A stretch of 64,000 nucleotides of DNA from the sequence record MW250785; one strand, written 5' to 3'. Positions 2,158-44,900 of this stretch are shown here, one piece after another. The notes under the pieces were generated by a model. The model was not told the origin of the DNA. It ran no database searches and worked only from the letters and a program-made list of their open reading frames with translations. Position 1 is the stretch's first letter, and each line of letters begins with the position of its first letter. This stretch comes from Escherichia phage UPEC03. The position numbers were made by a program, and so were the translations under genes.

Positions 2158-3333
2158 ATGTTAACTGTAATGAACACAAACCCAGATCACAAACACTTAG
2201 AACAGCCTATGTTCTTTGGTGAGGATACGGGCGTAGCACGATACGAAGAACAGAAACACCGTGTATTCGAAACCCTGACTGAAAAACAACTGTCATTCTT
2301 CTGGCGACCGGAAGAAGTGGATCTGTCGATCGACCGTATGCAGTACGCGAAAATGCCGGAACACGAAAAAATCATTTTCGATTCGAACCTGCAATATCAA
2401 ACCCTGTTGGATACCATTCAGGGGCGCGGCCCTAACCTGGCTTTCCTCCCTATCGCTTCCGATGTCTCAATGGAAACGTGGATCGAAACATGGGCGTTCA
2501 GTGAAACAATTCATAGCCGCAGTTATACGCACATTCAGCGCAATTTACACATCGACCCGTCGAAAGAGTTCGATAAAATTCTGCGCAACGAAGCGATCAT
2601 GAAACGTTCGGCTTCCATGACAAAATACTACGATGACCTGATCGCAGAATGTCACGAACTGAAAAACATTGTGCTCAAAATCGAAATGTTAACGTCCCAC
2701 GGATACCCAGACGAATCGATCGCAGAGTACGAAAAGAAACGCAAAGAGCAAATGCGTAAATGCAAGGTTGCTCTATACCTGTGTATGCACGCTGTCAACG
2801 CTCTGGAAGCGATCCGCTTCTACGTGTCGTTTACCTTCACGTTCAACTTTGCCGAACAAGGCAAGATGGAAGGTAACGCGAAGATCATGCGTCTGATTGC
2901 CCGTGATGAAGCACTTCACCAGAAAGGCACTCAAAGCAAGATCCGACTCTGGCAGATGGGTAAAGATGACCCAGAAATGGCGGAAATCGCTTACCAGTAC
3001 GAAGAGGAAGCGACAAAGATTTTCCTGGAAGTATACGAACAGGAAAAAGAATGGGCTGAACACCTGTTCTCTATCGGTGATGTAGACGGCGTATCCCTGA
3101 AAAGTACGATCGCTTATATCGAACACCTGACAGATCAGCGTATGCGAGCGGTTGGCTTGCAGTCTCCATTTAAACCAACGCCGAACCCGTATCCGTGGAT
3201 GAACAAATGGTTGAAGTCTGACAACGTACAGGTAGCCCCACAGGAAGTAGAAGTGAGTTCTTACCTGGTTGGCAACCTCAACACCGAGATCAGCGACGAA
3301 TCCTATGCAAAATGGCGACAAAAATACGCTTGA
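2158..3333 (+). CDS. nrdB: ribonucleotide reductase beta subunit
   Basis: 391 aa; ferritin-like di-iron motifs (ETIHSRSY, ARDEALH); uninterrupted reading frame. Confidence 0.9.
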   Translation: MLTVMNTNPDHKHLEQPMFFGEDTGVARYEEQKHRVFETLTEKQLSFFWRPEEVDLSIDRMQYAKMPEHEKIIFDSNLQYQTLLDTIQGRGPNLAFLPIASDVSMETWIETWAFSETIHSRSYTHIQRNLHIDPSKEFDKILRNEAIMKRSASMTKYYDDLIAECHELKNIVLKIEMLTSHGYPDESIAEYEKKRKEQMRKCKVALYLCMHAVNALEAIRFYVSFTFTFNFAEQGKMEGNAKIMRLIARDEALHQKGTQSKIRLWQMGKDDPEMAEIAYQYEEEATKIFLEVYEQEKEWAEHLFSIGDVDGVSLKSTIAYIEHLTDQRMRAVGLQSPFKPTPNPYPWMNKWLKSDNVQVAPQEVEVSSYLVGNLNTEISDESYAKWRQKYA

Positions 3334-11991: not shown

Positions 11992-12568
11992 CGGGATCGC
12001 CGTAAAATGGCAGTCGGGGTTGCCGTTCTTTTTGTCTAAACACAACATGCCGACCGATATCGCGCTGGATATGGTTACGGATGAAAAGTTCCGCGATATG
12101 ACCGAAATCTTCGGGTGTGATCACCAACTGGCGAAAATTCTCATGGAAGAATACAACAACAGTTCGTTTATTCGCTATCTAAGCGCGTATGACGATGCGT
12201 TAATTGTTATCAACCGTCTGAAAGCCAAATATGATTTTGTGGCTGTCACGGCGCTGGGAACCACTCCTACGGCAAGCCTTAACCGTATTGCAAACCTGAA
12301 CACGCTGTTCCCTTCTGCATTCAAAGAGGTTTGTGTTGTCGGTCACGGCGAAACGAAAGTACATCGTTACCTGGAAGCCAAAGCAAAATATGGCGATCGT
12401 TTAGTATGTTTCATTGATGACCTTGCAGTAAACTTGAATGAGTGTCATAACGTCATCAGTCAGTTGCCGTTATTCCATATGTTGCGTGGCGAACGTAGTG
12501 AACCGAGTGTACCTCATACTAAAGTGAATAACTGGCATGAAATTGAAAAAGCAATTGAGAACTCTTGA
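11963..12568 (+). CDS. HAD-superfamily hydrolase
   Basis: HAD motif I LTDIDGIAV; TTG start with RBS tgagg. Confidence 0.55.
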   Translation: MKPVILTDIDGIAVKWQSGLPFFLSKHNMPTDIALDMVTDEKFRDMTEIFGCDHQLAKILMEEYNNSSFIRYLSAYDDALIVINRLKAKYDFVAVTALGTTPTASLNRIANLNTLFPSAFKEVCVVGHGETKVHRYLEAKAKYGDRLVCFIDDLAVNLNECHNVISQLPLFHMLRGERSEPSVPHTKVNNWHEIEKAIENS

Positions 12569-13088
12569 TGAAGAAACGCAAGGTATAGAAAACCTACTAC
12601 AATGTATTCGAGTAGAACCAGAAACCGGAAAATGTTTCTGGTTGGAAAAGAGAAGTAATAAAATTCCTGCTGGAAGTGAAGCAGGTTCTTTTCATAAATC
12701 AAGTGGATATACGCGAATAAAATTCGAAAATGCGATGTACATCCGGTCACGGGTGATATTTTATTACGTTAATGGTTATCTTCCAGTGATGGTTGACCAT
12801 GTTCACGGTGTTGAATGCGGTGATATGATTTCTAATCTAAGGGAGTCCAATCAGGTAACAAATCAACAAAACCGCACACGGAATAAAAATAATACCGTTG
12901 GGTTTAAGGGCGTGTCATTCAACAAGAAATCGCAAAAATATAGCGCCAAAATCACTTTACATGGAGTGACTAAGTGGTTAGGATTTTATGATTCTGCCGA
13001 GGAAGCAAGTGAAGCATATAAGGCCAAAGCACTCGTTTCCTTTACACATAATGAAAGGTACTTAAATGATCTTACAGATTCTAAATGA
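12537..13088 (+). CDS. HNH homing endonuclease with AP2 DNA-binding domain
   Basis: HNH core VDHVHGVECGDMISNLR...N; AP2-like GFKGVSF...YSAKITLHG...GFYDSAEEASEAYKAKA; paralogous to ORFs at 30224 and 44376. Confidence 0.7.
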   Translation: MKLKKQLRTLDEETQGIENLLQCIRVEPETGKCFWLEKRSNKIPAGSEAGSFHKSSGYTRIKFENAMYIRSRVIFYYVNGYLPVMVDHVHGVECGDMISNLRESNQVTNQQNRTRNKNNTVGFKGVSFNKKSQKYSAKITLHGVTKWLGFYDSAEEASEAYKAKALVSFTHNERYLNDLTDSK

Positions 13089-28599: not shown

Positions 28600-29111
28600 C
28601 AGTGATGACTCTTTGATGTGTGTTCAAGGTTACGGAAGATGTTTCCATGTTCCAGTTGAGTTCCGATCGGGCCGCATTCATCGGAGTACGTGAATTCATA
28701 GATAAACACGCCGTCCTGATTGCCATACTTCGTGTTGTACTCTTCATACAACCACATTTTGATCAGAGCGTCTTTCTCTTCTGTGTCCAGATCGTACCAG
28801 TCTCGCCCGTCATACGCAAGCGCAATTTGAGGGTTTGAACGGTAGCGGGTTTCTGCGCTTTCTTCGGTTTCCCAGTCATAGCGTTTATCGTCGTAGAACG
28901 ATTCAAAGCTATTACCCAGATGACCGCCTAAGTCACGGTGAACATGATTGACCACTTCTTCCGCTGTTAACGGAGGATTGTAGTAACCGCAGTTCGGAAC
29001 GCAATCACCCATCATTTCGCGCAGGTTGTCGATATTAGTCGGATCTTTCGGGAACCGGACGATGAAACTACTTGATGAACTGTTGCTCACAAAACCAGAA
29101 CGGATTTTCAT
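28599..29111 (-). CDS. hypothetical protein, paralogue B with conserved N-terminal peptide
   Basis: 170 aa; N-terminus MKIRSGFVSNSSSSSF identical to paralogue A; RBS gagga. Confidence 0.65.
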   Translation of the reverse strand: MKIRSGFVSNSSSSSFIVRFPKDPTNIDNLREMMGDCVPNCGYYNPPLTAEEVVNHVHRDLGGHLGNSFESFYDDKRYDWETEESAETRYRSNPQIALAYDGRDWYDLDTEEKDALIKMWLYEEYNTKYGNQDGVFIYEFTYSDECGPIGTQLEHGNIFRNLEHTSKSHH

Positions 29112-29341
29112 TTTACATCCTCAAATTGTAAGTTTTCTTTGGTTGCGTTCGCAATGGCTTTTTCGTTGCTCAGTGTTACTATGCGCAGACGTTCTCCAGT
29201 AAAGCCGTCGCATTCAGTGATACTTACCCAGTCAAAAGGTTTAGCCATTTCAATCGCACGTTCCAGCGATACGGTAGAACCGACCAAATCACTAAATGTA
29301 TAGTAATCTTCGCTTAAACTTTCAACAGTATAAATTTTCAC
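29108..29341 (-). CDS. hypothetical protein
   Basis: 77 aa; N-terminus MKIYTVESL resembles that of ORF 29577..29849. Confidence 0.5.
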   Translation of the reverse strand: MKIYTVESLSEDYYTFSDLVGSTVSLERAIEMAKPFDWVSITECDGFTGERLRIVTLSNEKAIANATKENLQFEDVK

Positions 29342-29580
29342 GATACTTTACCTTTTGTTTCAGATTTCAGGACGATGTTACTGTAAGGATCTTTTGCTAC
29401 CAGTTCCCACAGGTCGCCAGGATGTTCCCCGCTACGGTAGACGGATGAACGGATGATTTCGTTAAACTTGCTCAGGGCTTCGTCTATGTCGTCATACCCG
29501 CATTTGAGAGGCTTACGGTTGCAACGAATGAAGAACATTTCGTTGGTATTCTCCCAGCGTTCGGCGTTTTTAACCTTCAT
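29338..29580 (-). CDS. hypothetical protein
   Basis: 80-aa ATGA-coupled ORF. Confidence 0.5.
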   Translation of the reverse strand: MKVKNAERWENTNEMFFIRCNRKPLKCGYDDIDEALSKFNEIIRSSVYRSGEHPGDLWELVAKDPYSNIVLKSETKGKVS

Positions 29581-29849
29581 ACCGCCTCCATTTTACCAAT
29601 GACTTCTTCGTATGTCACAGGGTTAGGTTCATAGCCGTTAGCGCCTATTGTATCGCCTACTCTGTTTCCTACTAAAGAAGCAACCGCAACTTTCTTGCCG
29701 TCTTTCCACGCAGTGAAATGCAGATTATCCGCAACATACGGGAAGGTTTCGTGATTGTTCACCGCGTCGATGCAGTCCATAACGGTATCAGACGCGCAGA
29801 TCAGATTACCAGGTTCATAATCAACCAAACATTCAACAGTGTAAATCAT
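29577..29849 (-). CDS. hypothetical protein
   Basis: 90 aa; N-terminus MIYTVECL. Confidence 0.5.
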   Translation of the reverse strand: MIYTVECLVDYEPGNLICASDTVMDCIDAVNNHETFPYVADNLHFTAWKDGKKVAVASLVGNRVGDTIGANGYEPNPVTYEEVIGKMEAV

Positions 29850-29868
29850 AATAATTTCCTCACGAAAA

Positions 29869-29884
29869 AGCCCCTTTCGGGGCT
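29869..29884. terminator. hairpin terminator
   Basis: agcccc-tttc-ggggct with flanking A/T runs. Confidence 0.55.
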
Positions 29885-29891
29885 TGATTAA

Positions 29892-30170
29892 TCAGTGTCC
29901 GAACACACCACGAATAGACTCTGCGAACGCGTACAGTTCAGGGTTTTTCGCTTTCACTGTTTCGATTTGTTCCAGGATGTAATCTGGTTTGTATTTCGCA
30001 CCGAACCAGCAGTAAGAGAAAGAACGATCCCACATGAACACGTTGTAGTATTCACCGTTACGCACTTCAACCATCACGTAACCTGGATTAGAACCCAGCG
30101 GGTAATCTTTCAGTAGATTAAATTTCGCACCAGCGCCAGTACATCCGTTAAACAGGTCATTAAAAGTCAT
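29892..30170 (-). CDS. hypothetical protein
   Basis: 92-aa ORF. Confidence 0.5.
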   Translation of the reverse strand: MTFNDLFNGCTGAGAKFNLLKDYPLGSNPGYVMVEVRNGEYYNVFMWDRSFSYCWFGAKYKPDYILEQIETVKAKNPELYAFAESIRGVFGH

Positions 30171-30223
30171 GGTATGTTCCTTTTCAGTTTCGTTTCGGTA
30201 AAGCTAATGTATCACTATCCTGG

Positions 30224-30760
30224 TCAGTATGCAATGTTTAATTTTGCAAATTTACCAAAATGTTTTATCGCTTCCCGATCGTATGCTTTTGCAGCCTCGT
30301 ATTCGTCACGATAGGAACCGATATGTTTAACCTTGCCGTCAATCTTTATCTGTGCAATGTAACGTATTCCAGTAGGTTGATCACGTACACATACACCCTT
30401 GAATCGACTGGTTGCTACTCTTCGTTTAGTCCGGTTCTGACAGTTTCGGGATTGATCCGCTTCACGCAAGTTATCAATCCCGTCGCCAGCCTCAACACCA
30501 TTTTTATGATCAATCACATCAGGCAGTTTTCCGGTTGCAACGTAGTAGATGATTCGATGACGTAGATATCCTTTGCTTTTGAAATAAACGCGGGTATATC
30601 CTCCTTTAATCTTCGAACCTACTTCCTTTCCGATCAAGTCAGAACGTTTGTGTGACGTTCGTATAATTGTCCCCGTTTGTATATCAACAGAAACAGTTTT
30701 AAGGAATTCGTCAATTCCTTTCTGTTCTTCTTCGATTGTTCTTAGTCCGTTGTGTGACAT
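30224..30760 (-). CDS. HNH homing endonuclease with AP2 domain
   Basis: HNH core RHRIIYYVATGKLPDVIDHKNGVEAGDGIDNLR; AP2-like FKGVCVRD...YIAQIKIDGK...GSYRDEYEAAKAYD; overlaps the methyltransferase gene 3' end. Confidence 0.7.
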   Translation of the reverse strand: MSHNGLRTIEEEQKGIDEFLKTVSVDIQTGTIIRTSHKRSDLIGKEVGSKIKGGYTRVYFKSKGYLRHRIIYYVATGKLPDVIDHKNGVEAGDGIDNLREADQSRNCQNRTKRRVATSRFKGVCVRDQPTGIRYIAQIKIDGKVKHIGSYRDEYEAAKAYDREAIKHFGKFAKLNIAY

Positions 30761-31665
30761 AACACCTTCTTGATTTGTTTTGCTATAGCCTCGATTACTG
30801 GTATTGAAACAGAATTACCTGCTTGTTTATACGCTTGCATCTTGCTTTTGTTGATAATAAACGAATCTGGGAAACCCTGCAAACGAAAACACTCACGGGG
30901 AGTAAGTCTTCGGGGGTTCTTTCCTTCCTGCAATACCAGACATTGAACACCATCTTTATAGTAATTTGCAGTGATAGTCCCAGTGTGCGTAGAATCGCTT
31001 GTGACGGCCTGATAACCGAAACCCTTACCGTTTGCCTTATTTCGTTCCTTACGCTCTCTAAAGCCCTTCCATGCGTTATCTGACAGGGTGAACGAATCAT
31101 CAGCATCTTCGAGGATGTCGCCTACGCGTGTAGGGGTACGCGGGGGAACCGGAAACGAAAAGAATACATCATCCAGGAAGCAGACAATAAACACGCGTTC
31201 CCGTCTTTGGGGTAGTCCGAAATCCTTTGTGTTCAGGCGTTGATAGAATACGTTATATCCTTCGGCCTCCAGAAGCCCGTAAATCGTTTTAAACGTCTTC
31301 CCCTTGTCATGGGTTAGCAGTTCAGGCACGTTCTCAAAGAACAACACACGGGGCTTTTTAGCGCGTATAATGCGGAGGATTTCGAAGAACACCGTACCGC
31401 GTACATCATCAAAGCCCAGTTTCAATCCGGCTTTACTGAACGCCTGACACGGGAACCCCGCGAGCAGGATATCATGATCAGGTACTTTGTTTTCATCAAT
31501 GGCGAATAGATCACCCTGTAGGTTATCATCGCCCCAGTTTTCGATATATGTTTGCTGTGCGAACTTGTCGATTTCAGACGTTAAAAGGCATTCGACACCG
31601 CCGAACGCCTTATCAAATCCTAATCGAACCCCGCCCACACCAGCGCAGAGGTCAATTATTTTCAT
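30742..31665 (-). CDS. DNA (cytosine-5)-methyltransferase
   Basis: 307 aa with C5-MTase motifs I DLCAGVGG, IV GFPCQAFS, VI FFENV, VIII QRRERVFIV and X AGNSV. Confidence 0.85.
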   Translation of the reverse strand: MKIIDLCAGVGGVRLGFDKAFGGVECLLTSEIDKFAQQTYIENWGDDNLQGDLFAIDENKVPDHDILLAGFPCQAFSKAGLKLGFDDVRGTVFFEILRIIRAKKPRVLFFENVPELLTHDKGKTFKTIYGLLEAEGYNVFYQRLNTKDFGLPQRRERVFIVCFLDDVFFSFPVPPRTPTRVGDILEDADDSFTLSDNAWKGFRERKERNKANGKGFGYQAVTSDSTHTGTITANYYKDGVQCLVLQEGKNPRRLTPRECFRLQGFPDSFIINKSKMQAYKQAGNSVSIPVIEAIAKQIKKVLCHTTD

Positions 31666-31931
31666 ACGTCAAAATCAATCTCGTCGATTTTGTATGAGTT
31701 TTCGTCAATGTCCGCCCATAGGGTTACATTAACGTGTTTGCTATCTTCGTACAACTGGCGACCATCAATCCCGCCCGTGTAATTGCTTTCGGTACGTTCA
31801 GTAACTTCCAGTCGGAGGCTATCGCGCATGATCTGAACAACAGCCTGTTCCAGTGTAACTGCGTCTGGGTTTTTGGTATCGCCCAGTACAACATCTTTAA
31901 CGTTCAAAATAATATCAGTCATTAGTGCCAC
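31662..31931 (-). CDS. hypothetical protein
   Basis: 89-aa ORF coupled to the methyltransferase gene. Confidence 0.5.
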   Translation of the reverse strand: MALMTDIILNVKDVVLGDTKNPDAVTLEQAVVQIMRDSLRLEVTERTESNYTGGIDGRQLYEDSKHVNVTLWADIDENSYKIDEIDFDV

Positions 31932-32164
31932 TCCGTTTTAATACCATGTCGGTATGCGTCAATCCCCAGCGGGGTAATCAGCAACCATGCTTTCGAATTA
32001 TCGTGATAGCCCGTTACCCTTCGAGCGTAACCTTTTTGAATCAGGGCATCACGCCCTGATTTGCTGGGTACGTCATCGAAATCTAAGTCTAGCACCTTAG
32101 TTGCATATCCGTAAAGTTTATACAGAACATCAATTTCAGCGCCGGACAATTTAGGATACATCAT
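31922..32164 (-). CDS. hypothetical protein
   Basis: 80-aa ORF. Confidence 0.5.
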   Translation of the reverse strand: MMYPKLSGAEIDVLYKLYGYATKVLDLDFDDVPSKSGRDALIQKGYARRVTGYHDNSKAWLLITPLGIDAYRHGIKTEWH

Positions 32165-33162
32165 TTGTAATACCCCACAACATGATCGCGGTATACGCGT
32201 TCGATGAAATCGTTCCAGAATTCGCGGTCAACTTCTTTCGGATATGTTGAAATCGCTGCAAGCCGTTCGACTTCGCCCATGACTTCTTCCAGCTTTTCCT
32301 GTACGGTTGCGAACGGTACGCCGCCAGCTTTAACCAGTTTCAGGAATGCGCTATCAGGCAGAGGATAAACGATATCACCATCTTTGTAAATCTGGATCAA
32401 CTGCATACCACCGCGCAACGCGTGACTTAAAGCCTTCCAGTCGATGCCGTTGTTGGCTTCTGCTTGTCGTGCGCGTTCTCCGTATTCATCCCAGAGTTTG
32501 TACACTGACTTACGCATTTCATCGGCTTTGATCGTGAACTGGAATTTACGCCCCAGCACTTCATAGAAGTCCTGACAACCAGATTTCATTGTCGTGTCGG
32601 TAACGAATCGGCAGAACTCGTTTGTAGGGAAACGATTCTTGATGTCAGACACTTTCACTTCACGCGTATAGCGTTTCATATCTGGTGTGAATTCCTGAAT
32701 ACCACCGATCGTTTCGGTTTCTTTCAGTACATCGACAACTTCGCGCAGTGCAGCCAGTCGGGAACCTTTCACACCATATTTTGCGGCTTGCTTGCGAACA
32801 TAACCGAACAGGCCAGTTAGTTCAGTGGTGTAAAAACGCCAGCGGTTAGCGCGGATATACTGCCAGATTTCAGAGTTAGCGATCAGCTTGTCATCCGAAG
32901 CGTGAAGCATATCGAGCGCTACGGTATCACCATCACACGCAAGGCTGATAAACTTAGTCAGACTATACAACTGACGATCAACGTCGTCTACGGTGTTTTT
33001 AGAGCTTTTATCGCCCGTGCTGGTGTCGATAGACTTCTTCGCAGTGCCTAACAGGATTTCGCGAGGATGAGGGAGATAGATCCCTTTGTAGTCTTTATCG
33101 CTTGTTGGTGTTTCCAGTCCGTAAAGATGGGATCCAAAAATCATTTCAGTAATCATTTTCAT
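32161..33162 (-). CDS. nucleotidyltransferase (pol-beta superfamily) of unknown specificity
   Basis: GS-x10-DxD signature FGSHLYGLETPTSDKDYKG; start moved to ATG 33162, which has RBS ggag and a TAATG overlap with the upstream stop. Confidence 0.55.
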   Translation of the reverse strand: MKMITEMIFGSHLYGLETPTSDKDYKGIYLPHPREILLGTAKKSIDTSTGDKSSKNTVDDVDRQLYSLTKFISLACDGDTVALDMLHASDDKLIANSEIWQYIRANRWRFYTTELTGLFGYVRKQAAKYGVKGSRLAALREVVDVLKETETIGGIQEFTPDMKRYTREVKVSDIKNRFPTNEFCRFVTDTTMKSGCQDFYEVLGRKFQFTIKADEMRKSVYKLWDEYGERARQAEANNGIDWKALSHALRGGMQLIQIYKDGDIVYPLPDSAFLKLVKAGGVPFATVQEKLEEVMGEVERLAAISTYPKEVDREFWNDFIERVYRDHVVGYYK

Positions 33163-33920
33163 TATACAAATCTCCAATAAAACCCTTTATGAGTTTTTCT
33201 TTTACCGTTACAGCATGAACTTACATGCCCTTTGTTATACCCCATTTCAACGGCTTCCACAATACCACCATTTAAAATAGTTTCTCTTTCTGTTTTGATA
33301 CATTTCATAATCAAAGGTTTTATCAATTCCGTCTTCTTTTGTGAAATATTAGCTAATGCAATTACATTTCTGATATCAGATTCACTCATTAAATCAGAAA
33401 TCTTCTTTCTTAACCATACATAGCCTTGACTTTTGGCAAGTTTGCCGGAGCAACATTCATGAATATGACTAGGGTTAAATCCACGCAATTTCATTTCTTG
33501 CCGACCGCCTAATATGATAATCTCGTCTCCTGTTTCAAGGTTGAATCCGACAACTGGAATTATTTGCCGTTCCGACATTTTCTTTCTCGCTTCTTTCGTG
33601 AATATTGTAAGAGATTTTAATTTTCTCGCGTCGCTCATTTGCGAAGATGTCGTTTTGTATTTCTTAGTATTATGAGACATACGGAAAAAAGCATATCTCA
33701 TTTTATCACCAGCATACTTAGCAAGTAGATGATGAGCAAGATAATGCTCTTTATATGTTAAATATACTAAATTTTCGGGTTCATCAGTACCACCTAATGA
33801 CTTAGCAACGATATGGTGTATATCATAACCGCGCTTTCTATACTTTTTCGAGTAACCTTTAGGTATATCTCTTCTTTTTGCCAATGTAATTAGTTGGTCG
33901 TAAATACGCTTATAGTTCAT
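33162..33920 (-). CDS. HNH homing endonuclease (Mob-like family)
   Basis: HNH motif YDIHHIVAKSLGGTDEPENLVYLTYKEHYLAHH; start at internal ATG 33920 with RBS ggag; paralogous to ORF 61728..62396. Confidence 0.65.
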   Translation of the reverse strand: MNYKRIYDQLITLAKRRDIPKGYSKKYRKRGYDIHHIVAKSLGGTDEPENLVYLTYKEHYLAHHLLAKYAGDKMRYAFFRMSHNTKKYKTTSSQMSDARKLKSLTIFTKEARKKMSERQIIPVVGFNLETGDEIIILGGRQEMKLRGFNPSHIHECCSGKLAKSQGYVWLRKKISDLMSESDIRNVIALANISQKKTELIKPLIMKCIKTERETILNGGIVEAVEMGYNKGHVSSCCNGKRKTHKGFYWRFV

Positions 33921-34050
33921 ACACTCTCCTTTAGGCGTATTTATCACTTAAAATCCGAACACGGTTTCCATAATCATTTTCATCAGAATTCAACCTTTAA
34001 TGTTTTTGCGATCCCGCGCAATTCCGCGGTAGTAATAACAGGGATCATAA

Positions 34051-34323
34051 TCATTTCCTCACAGTTTCAAATTCTTCGTCAGATTTCCAGTACACGTTAA
34101 AGTTACGGCAATCGTGGTCGGAAGTCAACGTATATTTTTCTTTTGTTTTCTCGTCGGTGATCACCATCGTTTCATTCTCGATCGAGTCCACACCATAGAC
34201 GAATACTTTATCACCGCGTTTATTCAGGAACGCTTCACCTGTTTCAACCAACTGCCAGCAGTTGACGGGTAAACCACCCGCACAGATCGGACGGTTTACG
34301 AGGCAGTAAGGACGTTTAATCAT
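34051..34323 (-). CDS. hypothetical protein
   Basis: 90-aa ORF. Confidence 0.5.
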   Translation of the reverse strand: MIKRPYCLVNRPICAGGLPVNCWQLVETGEAFLNKRGDKVFVYGVDSIENETMVITDEKTKEKYTLTSDHDCRNFNVYWKSDEEFETVRK

Positions 34324-44375: not shown

Positions 44376-44900
44376 TTATGTGGTTTCGTTAAAAAATGTG
44401 CCGAAAACCTCTTTCGCTTTCCGGTCATAAACGGCTTTTGCTTCTTCTGGAGTGGTATAATACCCCAAAAATTTTCTTTTTCCATCTATGTTTATCTGCG
44501 CTTTATACTTCCCATTTGCTTTGTGATAAGAAACACCTTTCAACCCCGTACTGCTGTTTGAATTACATTTCTTTTTCATCGCGTTTTGTTGGTTCGTCGC
44601 TTTCTGTAGATTTCTTGCTGTATCTCCATTTTCAACACCATACACATGATCTACGATAGGAGGAAGATAACCATTCTCAACGTAAAACACTATTCGGTGT
44701 CGCAAATACATAGAACCTTTAAAATGAATTTGGGAATACTCGTTCTTGCTTCCGGCTTCACTTCCAGGAGACATAGGGCCGCGCTGAATTTTCCAATACA
44801 CTTTTCCCGTAGATGTATCAACATCTACATAACTCAGAAGAGACTCAATCCCTTGAATCTCTTCCTGTATGGTTCTTGATGAATAACCATGACTTTTCAT
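44376..44900 (-). CDS. HNH homing endonuclease with AP2 domain
   Basis: RHRIVFYVENGYLPPIVDHVYGVENGD...NL plus AP2-like GLKGVSYHKANGKYKAQINIDGK; ATG at 44900 preferred to the track GTG at 44963. Confidence 0.65.
   Translation of the reverse strand: MKSHGYSSRTIQEEIQGIESLLSYVDVDTSTGKVYWKIQRGPMSPGSEAGSKNEYSQIHFKGSMYLRHRIVFYVENGYLPPIVDHVYGVENGDTARNLQKATNQQNAMKKKCNSNSSTGLKGVSYHKANGKYKAQINIDGKRKFLGYYTTPEEAKAVYDRKAKEVFGTFFNETT

Follow-up and report, generated by a model that had tools for sequence, protein, structure and literature searches.

Is the cytosine-5 (C5) DNA methyltransferase gene of a T4-like phage, whose 3' end overlaps an HNH-AP2 endonuclease gene, one half of a mobile or functional pair, or is it a resident phage gene that has acquired a selfish neighbour? 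We addressed this question in a stretch of 64,000 nucleotides from Escherichia phage UPEC03 (sequence record MW250785), referred to below as the window, which represents a Pseudotevenvirus of the RB16/RB43/GAP161 group. Both genes have been annotated before as methylase and HNH-AP2 endonuclease. The features discussed below are listed in Table 1.

Table 1. Features of the methyltransferase-endonuclease locus, in coordinates of the window.
Feature	Position	Strand	Evidence or context
C5 DNA (cytosine-5) methyltransferase, 307 aa, orphan, Dcm-like target-recognition domain	30742..31665	-	Pfam, M.HhaI, dN/dS
Free-standing HNH-AP2 homing endonuclease gene, 178 aa	30224..30760	-	
Overlap of methyltransferase 3' and endonuclease 5' ends, 19 nt, different frames	30742..30760	-	
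Last 210 nt of the methyltransferase before the overlap, co-conversion-like tract	30761..30970	-	mismatch map against JC03
775-bp segment differing from the JC03/GAP161-like backbone	30196..30970	-	mismatch map, identity profile
Shine-Dalgarno-like AAGAAGG, 4 nt upstream of the endonuclease ATG	30765..30771	-	within methyltransferase codons (KQIKKV)
Right-hand junction TTGCAT-N17-TACATT, promoter-like, conserved	30206..30234	-	upstream of next gene 29892..30170

Phage background and DNA modification genes

The closest complete genome, iPHaGe-KPN-11i (11i), is 98% identical to the window. Tblastn searches with T4 gp42, alpha-gt and beta-gt gave no match in the window, and in the whole 11i genome gp42 matched only thymidylate synthase, at 23% identity, and the glucosyltransferases matched nothing. 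The positive controls gp43 and UvsX were recovered at 54-55% in the same search, which covered the window and the whole 11i genome and also found homologues of gp56 and Dam. The initial annotation had seen no dCMP hydroxymethylase and had proposed a check for gene 42 and glucosyltransferases, and the searches bear it out; judged by its gene content, this is a phage without the hydroxymethylcytosine (hmC) pathway. The same annotation had called a C5 methyltransferase unexpected if the phage used hmC as T4 does. Since homologues of gp42 and of the glucosyltransferases are absent from the closest complete genome, the enzyme is unsurprising here, and the pseudo-T-even phages have been reported both to lack gene 42 (PMC2993671, Table 4) and to carry a methylase, that of RB43 (RB43ORF127c) having been reported already in 2006 (PMC1524935).

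The methyltransferase gene

The methyltransferase matched the full length of the Pfam profile DNA_methylase (PF00145, positions 1-324 of 324) at 309.8 bits and E=3.3e-92, with a curated cut-off of 22 bits, and the dcm superfamily model TIGR00675 at 317.8 bits and E=1e-94, with a cut-off of 100.65 bits. All catalytic and cofactor motifs were found in the sequence, namely I (DLCAGVGG), IV (GFPCQAFS, with PCQ and its nucleophilic Cys), VI (FFENV), VIII (QRRERVFIV), IX (RRLTPRECFRLQGFP) and X (GNSVSIPV). The motif set first listed for this gene therefore holds, except that motif I, described as FxGxGG-type, is not a true FxGxG, with Cys replacing Phe. This Cys is common to 23 of 23 phage-clade protein clusters, and the bacterial homologues among the matches listed (~56-61% identical) have DLFAG(I/V)GG or DIFAGIGG at this position. 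The change might alter cofactor use and might bear on the restriction resistance of phage KP27. The variable region between motifs VIII and IX, noted as short from the outset, comprises ~90 aa, a length that is usual in small monospecific C5 methylases such as M.HhaI. A dN/dS of 0.05-0.14 against relatives indicates purifying selection, and the gene apparently encodes a complete and active C5 enzyme.

Orthologues at the same locus, between an nrdC.11-like gene and a phrog_7752 gene, are RB43ORF127c, RB16p119 and KP27_137 (named 'Dcm'), with 84-98% protein identity to the window methylase, which differs from them in a foreign last 210 nt and in a six-residue replacement tail derived from the endonuclease insertion. 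No cognate restriction enzyme was found beside the methylase, its neighbours being small ORFs, an nrdC.11-like nucleotidyltransferase and homing endonucleases. PADLOC matched the methylase only to generic models (DrmMII and DruM among them) and did not hit the endonuclease; we assign no defence-system context to the locus.

Target specificity of the methyltransferase

Searched alone, the recognition domain matched only the Shigella flexneri 'cytosine-specific methyltransferase' chains 3lx6/3me5 (482 residues, E=3e-5), which we take to be Dcm. BLASTP against E. coli Dcm gave 36% identity overall (E=5e-55) with the recognition domain included, and the recognition-domain motifs GxGFGY...T(I/L)(T/S)A.YYKDG align with those of the E. 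coli Dcm / M.EcoRII group, which targets CCWGG. However, the enzyme scored 191.8 bits with the NCBIfam Dcm subfamily NF007772, far under the cut-off of 710 bits, and is therefore not an orthologue of E. coli Dcm; it also lacks the ~85-residue N-terminal extension, the internal insertions and the Vsr partner of Dcm and has Cys in motif I where the Dcm group has Phe. The catalytic core is nearer to M.HhaI (GCGC) than to Dcm. M.HhaI is the closest solved structure, of the same size class and with a full-length alignment over ten motifs (E=6e-64), but it was not retrieved by the recognition domain alone at E<=10, and the HhaI recognition-loop residues that we take to be Q237 and R240 align to Gly and Ala in the window methylase. 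A 61%-identical homologue in a P2-like prophage adjoins an EcoRII-C-domain protein. Another bacterial homologue lies next to a GHKL-ATPase and an uncharacterised protein, a neighbourhood that is uninformative on specificity.

Site counts in the 11i genome showed CCWGG retained at 317 copies (observed/expected, O/E, 0.72), CCSGG purged to 20 copies (O/E 0.15), GGWCC at 7 copies (O/E 0.08), and 0 copies of the PstI, BamHI, HindIII and KpnI sites against 25-49 expected. GCGC was not depleted either (O/E 0.94), so that site statistics alone would also accommodate a GCGC specificity. Restriction digests are the only data that we found in the literature on this point, with no methylome data for Pseudotevenvirus or Slopekvirus phages; they showed virion DNA of the Slopekviruses KP15 and KP27 to be uncut by EcoRII despite 279 and 276 CCWGG sites, respectively (PMC3620542). 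That study also found EcoRII resistance in the siphovirus KP36, a phage without a cytosine methylase (PMC3620542), and the resistance of KP15 and KP27 could come from host Dcm. Taken from these comparisons, the likely role of the window methylase would be self-methylation of CCWGG against host restriction.

The endonuclease gene

The neighbouring gene is, by its domains, an HNH-AP2 homing-type endonuclease with predicted activity. An I-HmuI-like HNH nuclease occupies residues ~1-110 and an AP2 DNA-binding domain residues ~117-176. The protein matched Pfam HNH_3 at 27.2 bits (cut-off 24.8) and phrog_99 'HNH endonuclease' at E=2.6e-48; its HNH catalytic residues are present and invariant among the copies compared, and a dN/dS of 0.11-0.24 indicates purifying selection. 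AP2 was not called by Pfam at E<=10 and was assigned via PDB sequence matches, homologue annotations and a fold search that gave the I-HmuI and AP2 folds. I-HmuI of Bacillus phage SPO1 (PDB 1u3e) is an intron-encoded HNH nicking enzyme whose C-terminal DNA-binding module is a helix-turn-helix, whereas the window endonuclease is free-standing and has the AP2 domain in place of that module. HNH-AP2 homing endonucleases were reportedly treated as a class by Magnani et al. in 2004. The same order of an N-terminal HNH and a C-terminal AP2 domain is found in the 'HNH-AP2' proteins of RB16 and RB43 and in the 'IPA-HNH' proteins described from phage ICP1 (PMC10448857), the latter being too divergent for the HNH_3 profile that the window endonuclease matches. 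Two further HNH-AP2 paralogues occur in the window, in agreement with a published count of such genes in RB43 and its relatives, which gave three for RB43 (Petrov 2010, PMC2993671).

Gene overlap and expression signals

The endonuclease had been annotated as fused onto the methyltransferase and as overlapping its 3' end by 19 nt. The coordinates on the minus strand confirm the overlap, with the methylase stop codon at 30742..30744 and the endonuclease ATG at 30760, but these are two separate ORFs in different frames and not a fusion. An identical 19-nt overlap is present in 11i, EC-F1, leE, Slopekvirus M1 and the remnant in phage JC221 described below. The last six methylase codons (LCHTTD) and the stop codon come from the inserted endonuclease cassette, and the ORFs overlap because the insert brings this replacement tail and stop with it.

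The endonuclease stop codon falls within the right-hand junction, where TTGCA(T/C) is followed 17 nt on by TAnnnT in every allele examined, irrespective of the preceding cassette. The equivalent stretch in KP27 is annotated as a 'putative middle promoter'; because the junction lies under the threshold of our sigma-70 consensus scan, we make the promoter assignment only weakly. Across 29500..34200 the scan for sigma-70 promoters and terminators found 10, no more than the 10.1 expected by chance, and the T4 late-promoter motif TATAAATA was absent near the locus, and we therefore claim no dedicated endonuclease promoter. Around the endonuclease ribosome-binding site RNA structure was no more stable than in shuffles (z=0.44), which gives no evidence of sequestration. 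Translation of the endonuclease is probably coupled to that of the methylase.

Distribution among related phages and insertion site

The methylase occurs in ~174-176 of ~175 related phage records with fixed synteny, and between the two genera it has diverged about as much as the flanking genes have. The endonuclease was found in 21 of 176 records, and 88% of the methylase-carrying phages are without it. The comparison with endonuclease-free relatives that the initial annotation had proposed revealed a 527-bp presence/absence difference between Slopekvirus M1 and Miro, a clean insertion with flanks that are 97-100% identical, and a 775-bp difference between the window and phage JC03. The insertion point lies seven codons ahead of the methylase stop codon, and in two genera the endonuclease sits at exactly one nucleotide position. 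Yersinia phage JC221 has at the same site a decayed copy, a 57-aa remnant that has lost the HNH domain. The insertion of the endonuclease into the last methylase codons is recent.

The slot has at least five kinds of content: empty, a 78-aa ORF, an 84-aa ORF, a 146-aa ORF with or without a 71-aa ORF, and the endonuclease. Endonuclease-free alleles have divergent 3'-end haplotypes as well (72-76% identical), linked to other small ORF cassettes, and the junction therefore appears to be a recombination hot spot with or without the endonuclease. Flanking sequence diverges in the same way around a second sporadic endonuclease gene, located 2.4 kb upstream. We also considered a CCWGG site at the insertion junction as a link between methylation and immunity to the endonuclease; a CCAGG follows the endonuclease stop codon only in the window, and the idea was dropped because the site is lacking in other alleles.

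The replaced segment

The 775-bp segment is composed of the methylase 3' tract, the endonuclease gene and ~28 nt downstream, and the backbone around it is otherwise identical to that of an endonuclease-free relative. Window and JC03 agree at every position over 30971..32200 and differ densely from 30970 downwards, so that the first 695 nt of the window methylase are identical to those of endonuclease-free JC03; pS is 0.00 in this 5' part, against a pS of 0.53 and a pN of 0.065 in the 3' part. Within the 210-nt tract lie the recognition-domain core and motifs IX-X. A 270-nt methylase 3' haplotype was shared at >=99% identity only with the endonuclease-positive EC-F1 and 11i; all others among the 174 records reached at most 84%. 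The tract looks as if it had arrived with the endonuclease. In the endonuclease-positive alleles of leE and M1 the methylase 3' ends are 97-98% identical to those of endonuclease-free relatives, and a co-conversion tract is therefore seen in one lineage only, that of the window, 11i and EC-F1.

Origin of the arrangement

Our preferred reading, to which we give a probability of roughly 0.78, is that of a conserved orphan Dcm-like C5 methylase with a free-standing, selfish HNH-AP2 homing endonuclease inserted in its 3' end. The initial annotation had suggested instead that the pair moved together. A composite mobile unit of this kind would fit two genes that are adjacent, overlapping and co-oriented, as well as a last 210 nt of the methylase that travelled with the endonuclease in the window lineage, but it is largely refuted and hardly credible given that the methylase stands in ~174 of ~175 related genomes at conserved synteny and the endonuclease in 21, that the methylase diverges between genera like its flanking genes, and that its 5' 695 nt match an endonuclease-free phage. 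Nor did the suggested targeting of a methyltransferase-minus allele find support, as no such allele was seen among ~175 related records; a plausible target is rather the endonuclease-minus allele of the methylase 3' end. The endonuclease might also have been recruited as a partner of the methylase, either in a restriction-like module acting on unmethylated competitor or host DNA or as a Vsr-like T:G nickase after 5mC deamination. The layout does recall dcm-vsr, E. coli vsr overlapping the dcm 3' end by 20 nt (2900..2919, locus L023), and both genes are under purifying selection. Still, a recruited partner would not be expected to be so sporadic or to decay as in JC221, the endonuclease has no match to Vsr or to any restriction-enzyme family (Pfam, NCBIfam, PADLOC), and its paralogues in 11i adjoin unrelated genes, those for DNA ligase and PhoH, all of which makes recruitment very improbable. 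The authors of the KP15/KP27 study proposed that homing endonucleases regulate DNA modification (PMC5219037); that proposal concerns other endonuclease genes, and nothing at this locus supports it.

A further explanation takes the exchange of cassettes and the mosaic 3' end of the methylase as products of ordinary recombination, homologous or illegitimate, where two modules meet (methylase C-terminal codons on one side, the promoter-like motif on the other), with the endonuclease as a passive passenger ORF. The variety of contents in the slot, the divergent 3' haplotypes of endonuclease-free alleles and the junction motifs common to all alleles would be expected in that case. We nevertheless consider it unlikely, since a passenger would hardly be under purifying selection with its catalytic residues kept, be placed at an identical nucleotide position in two genera, belong to the HNH-AP2 homing endonuclease class and be matched 2.4 kb away by a second sporadic endonuclease gene with the same flanking divergence. 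The homing reading also has precedents among the free-standing endonucleases of T4-type phages. In published accounts (PMC2330249, PMC2790892; for SegG co-conversion, work cited in PMC10448857), SegB, SegG and MobE are encoded between or partly in conserved genes, are sporadic, and co-convert flanking markers. These are GIY-YIG or MobE-type HNH enzymes with cleavage and cross data, whereas the window gene is an HNH-AP2 type known from sequence.

The methylase is one of the conserved genes shared by Pseudotevenvirus and Slopekvirus phages, and the endonuclease gene has inserted at its extreme 3' end, immediately ahead of the promoter-like junction that precedes the next gene. Under the homing reading, the endonuclease would act in mixed infections by nicking or cutting an endonuclease-free allele near the conserved coding sequence for motif X and the C-terminus, and repair off the endonuclease-carrying genome would then bring in the endonuclease gene along with adjoining methylase sequence. 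One could further speculate, at rather long odds, that the endonuclease again and again carries the final ~200 nt of the methylase gene, with the recognition-domain core, from one lineage to another and so could be a vehicle for shuffling or resetting specificity, perhaps as a 'HEG island' with the gene 2.4 kb upstream. If true, such an island would spread anti-restriction cargo among phages of Klebsiella, Enterobacter and Cronobacter.

Significance

Beyond a tidy annotation the significance of the locus is small. It does offer a clean natural case of a homing endonuclease within the last codons of a conserved gene that is not destroyed by it, and endonuclease-plus, empty and decayed alleles all exist for a simple homing experiment. 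For the phages themselves, what the genome has instead of hmC is a Dcm-like methylase and a Dam homologue, together with strong avoidance of restriction sites. Pseudotevenvirus and Slopekvirus phages would make ordinary cytosine DNA and evade host restriction by purging many restriction sites and methylating those that are retained, GATC by the T4-Dam homologue and CCWGG most probably by the C5 methylase. As these phages include phage-therapy candidates against Klebsiella, Enterobacter and Cronobacter, such knowledge helps to foresee host range as well as restriction enzymes and sequencing chemistries that behave oddly on their DNA.

Identity of the methyltransferase and endonuclease genes

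Our analysis recovered two minus-strand genes where the initial annotation had placed them, namely a C5 DNA methyltransferase gene and, overlapping its 3′ end by the reported 19 nt, a homing-type HNH-AP2 endonuclease gene. The two had been called fused but are separate ORFs in different frames. Pfam DNA_methylase covers the methyltransferase across the entire profile (E=3.3e-92), the TIGR00675 dcm superfamily also matches, M.HhaI is the nearest solved structure (E=6e-64), and all ten C5-methyltransferase motifs are readable. In motif I (DLCAGVGG) a Cys replaces the usually conserved Phe; it is common to 23/23 phage-clade protein clusters, and the bacterial homologues from the same search (~56-61% identical) carry DLFAG(I/V)GG or DIFAGIGG among the matches listed. 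The gene is under strong purifying selection (dN/dS 0.05-0.14 vs relatives up to dS 1.3). It encodes an orphan enzyme: no restriction enzyme was found near it, the neighbours being small ORFs, an nrdC.11-like nucleotidyltransferase and homing endonucleases.

The endonuclease exceeds the Pfam HNH_3 gathering score, matches PHROG 99 'HNH endonuclease', keeps the invariant residues D84, H85, N97 and N109 and is likewise under purifying selection (dN/dS 0.11-0.24). Pfam made no AP2 call on it; its C-terminal 60 residues match plant AP2 domains in PDB (WRI1, E=2e-4), and PF00847 is carried by more distant homologues. No endonuclease-specific promoter or RNA structure was found at the locus, and we infer translational coupling via AAGAAGG, 4 nt upstream of the ATG. 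Two further HNH-AP2 paralogues in the window are 40-42% identical to it; their equivalents in Klebsiella phage iPHaGe-KPN-11i (11i), the nearest complete genome, adjoin DNA ligase and PhoH-like genes.

Features of the methyltransferase-endonuclease region and of compared loci
Feature	Source	Position	Strand	Remarks
Methyltransferase	window	30742..31665	-	307 aa, C5 DNA methyltransferase; Pfam + TIGR00675
Motif I Cys	window	31642..31644	-	codon 7
Endonuclease	window	30224..30760	-	178 aa; HNH_3 + PHROG 99
Overlap of both genes	window	30742..30760	-	19 nt, differing frames
Replaced segment	window	30196..30970		775 bp; endonuclease gene, ~28 nt downstream, last 210 nt of methyltransferase
nrdC.11-like gene	window	32161..33177		nucleotidyltransferase
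Second endonuclease	window	33162..33947	-	261 aa; HNH + I-HmuI NUMOD-like domain, phrog_655
Region with both endonucleases	window	30224..33947		2.4-kb block between them
HNH-AP2 paralogue	window	12555..13043	+
HNH-AP2 paralogue	window	44394..44876	-
Endonuclease-free slot contents	relative, L002	3419..3859
Endonuclease-free slot contents	relative, L003	1419..1655
Endonuclease-free slot contents	relative, L009	921..1617
Endonuclease-free slot contents	relative, L010	1265..1958
Endonuclease-free slot contents	relative, L011	952..1206
Decayed endonuclease	Yersinia phage JC221, L022	2492..2665		57 aa
dcm-vsr overlap	E. coli K-12, L023	2900..2919		20 nt
Annotated DNA methyltransferase	11i, L015	16030..16770		246 aa, upstream of primase gene
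Annotated DNA methyltransferase	11i, L016	9415..10266		T4 Dam homologue, 54% identity

Phage group and hydroxymethylcytosine genes

Nucleotide identity of the region is 98% for 11i and for Enterobacter phage EC-F1, and 92-97% for the Cronobacter phages GAP161, leE and JC03; all belong to the Straboviridae genus Pseudotevenvirus (RB16/RB43 group), and Slopekvirus (KP15, KP27, Miro, M1) is the next nearest group (~82%). T4 gp42, alpha-gt, beta-gt, gp56 and Dam served as tblastn queries against the window and the entire genome of 11i. Neither gene 42 nor a glucosyltransferase has a homologue in them: the sole match to gp42 was a thymidylate synthase (23% identity) and both glucosyltransferases gave zero matches, while gp56 (46%) and Dam (54%) homologues are present and the positive controls gp43 and UvsX matched at 54-55%. 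RB16 and RB43 are not among the gene 42 phages in Table 4 of Petrov et al. 2010 (PMC2993671), and the data of Kesik-Szeloch et al. 2013 on KP15 and KP27 agree with absent hydroxymethylcytosine genes (PMC3620542). Since these genes are missing and the RB43 copy of the methyltransferase (RB43ORF127c) was published in 2006 (PMC1524935), a C5 methyltransferase is expected here and not the anomaly it had been taken for. Two more genes are annotated as DNA methyltransferases in 11i (table).

Specificity of the methyltransferase

The catalytic core is nearest to M.HhaI but the recognition domain is not, and four lines of evidence point to a Dcm-like specificity. With the stretch separating motifs VIII and IX as sole query, M.HhaI was not recovered and the only matches were 3lx6/3me5 (E=3e-5), two Shigella flexneri chains named 'cytosine-specific methyltransferase' that we take to be Dcm. 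The recognition-domain motifs GxGFGY...T(I/L)(T/S)A.YYKDG align with E. coli Dcm in BLASTP, a P2-like prophage of Morganella encodes a homologue (61% identical) next to an EcoRII-C-domain protein, and a 58%-identical homologue is labelled 'nlaX' by one metagenome source. Site statistics, computed on the genome of the relative 11i (L013-L016), fit such a specificity. Restriction sites are strongly avoided, a feature noted for the whole window as well as for 11i. GGWCC (O/E 0.08), CCSGG (0.15), GGCC (0.48) and AGCT (0.53) are depleted there, and PstI, BamHI, HindIII and KpnI sites are absent (0 observed vs 25-49 expected). CCWGG is retained (317 copies, O/E 0.72), and GATC (O/E 0.97; a Dam homologue is present), CGCG, TCGA and EcoRI sites show no depletion.

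The orthologue KP27_137 occupies the same locus in KP27. EcoRII leaves KP15 and KP27 virion DNA uncut despite 279 and 276 CCWGG sites, a resistance that host Dcm can also give, as it did for siphovirus KP36 in the same work (PMC3620542). Most likely the enzyme would self-methylate CCWGG, shielding ordinary-cytosine DNA from EcoRII- or SsoII-type restriction; as further caveats to this call besides host Dcm, GCGC is likewise undepleted in 11i and the protein scores far under the cut-off set for the curated subfamily model of E. coli Dcm.

Insertion site and replaced segment

The methyltransferase occurs in ~174-176 related phage records with fixed synteny, and an endonuclease orthologue in 21 of them. 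A clean presence/absence polymorphism is found in Slopekvirus, where M1 differs from endonuclease-free Miro by a 527-bp insertion with flanks 97-100% identical. The insertion point lies within the methyltransferase ORF, seven codons ahead of the stop, and changes the C-terminus from KQIKKA-LAQAKEE (Miro) to KQIKKA-LCHIMD (M1). The 19-nt overlap is a by-product of this insertion, because the 5′ end of the inserted gene supplies the new tail and stop. The displaced 24 nt persist directly after the M1 endonuclease, where a C-to-T change makes its stop codon.

The right-hand junction in all alleles examined is a conserved TTGCA(T/C)-N17-TAnnnT upstream of the next gene; the stretch equivalent to this element in KP27 carries the annotation 'putative middle promoter'. 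The interval between methyltransferase and next gene is a hypervariable cassette slot. Pseudotevenviruses without the endonuclease carry in it either a single ORF (one of 146 aa, its truncated 78-aa derivative or one of 84 aa) or two ORFs, each beginning at or beside the methyltransferase stop codon. These ORFs had no Pfam match over the curated cut-off; the 146-aa ORF has a sub-threshold Ntox50 match (E=0.0024, 19 bits vs 22.2). JC221 retains a decayed endonuclease with the same start and the 19-nt overlap, residues ~18-140 being deleted and the HNH nuclease domain gone.

Compared with endonuclease-free JC03, the window shows 0 differences over 30971..32200 (1,230 nt, of which 695 nt are the start of the methyltransferase gene), dense differences over 30196..30970 and 8 over 29000..30195; therefore, a 775-bp segment has been replaced (table), which points to recent movement. 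The 3′ part of the methyltransferase gene is foreign DNA encoding a preserved protein (pS 0.53, pN 0.065; 5′ part pS 0.00). This identical 5′ two-thirds and the distribution, endonuclease-free relatives having the methyltransferase alone, essentially refute joint movement of the two genes, as had been suggested.

A 3′ haplotype at least 99% identical is found only in endonuclease-positive EC-F1 and 11i, and among 174 records the one ranking next reaches 84%, a pattern that would be expected of gene conversion starting near the insertion site. Ordinary modular recombination, in which the endonuclease was a mere passenger, could be invoked instead, since in endonuclease-positive leE and M1 the 3′ ends are 97-98% identical to endonuclease-free relatives, and endonuclease-free alleles also carry divergent 3′ haplotypes, each linked to its own cassette. 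We regard this as a live, though improbable, rival to the gene conversion expected of a homing endonuclease; because of these same observations, the 3′ end is a recombination junction in any case. A functional partnership, restriction-like or Vsr-like, might be suggested by E. coli K-12, where vsr overlaps the dcm 3′ end in a similar layout; however, the two downstream proteins are unrelated, and a partnership is unlikely because 88% of methyltransferase-carrying phages lack the endonuclease, it has decayed in JC221, and its paralogues adjoin unrelated genes.

The nrdC.11-like gene is overlapped at its start, by 16 nt, by a second free-standing homing endonuclease gene, which occurs in only 12/175 records of related phages. 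Next to this gene, identity to close relatives drops to 67-85% over the initial ~180 nt of nrdC.11. The two endonuclease genes flank a block with the nrdC.11-like gene, two small ORFs and the methyltransferase gene, an arrangement similar to what Barth et al. 2023 call 'HEG islands' (PMC10448857). They are found together more frequently than expected, the first being present in 6/12 records with the second vs 15/163 without (Fisher p=8e-4, which ignores phylogeny).

Both genes were already known: many GenBank records annotate them as 'DNA methyltransferase' and 'HNH/homing endonuclease', Escherichia phage UPEC03 has a deposited endonuclease protein identical to this one, Petrov et al. 2010 gave counts of the RB16 and RB43 HNH-AP2 endonuclease genes (PMC2993671), and Barth et al. 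2023 deal with nuclease genes placed at recombination boundaries (PMC10448857). Our additions are incremental and comprise the exact insertion anatomy, the putative 775-bp conversion tract, the remnant allele and a reasoned CCWGG assignment. Alleles that look active, are empty or have decayed would together represent classical stages of the homing endonuclease life cycle.
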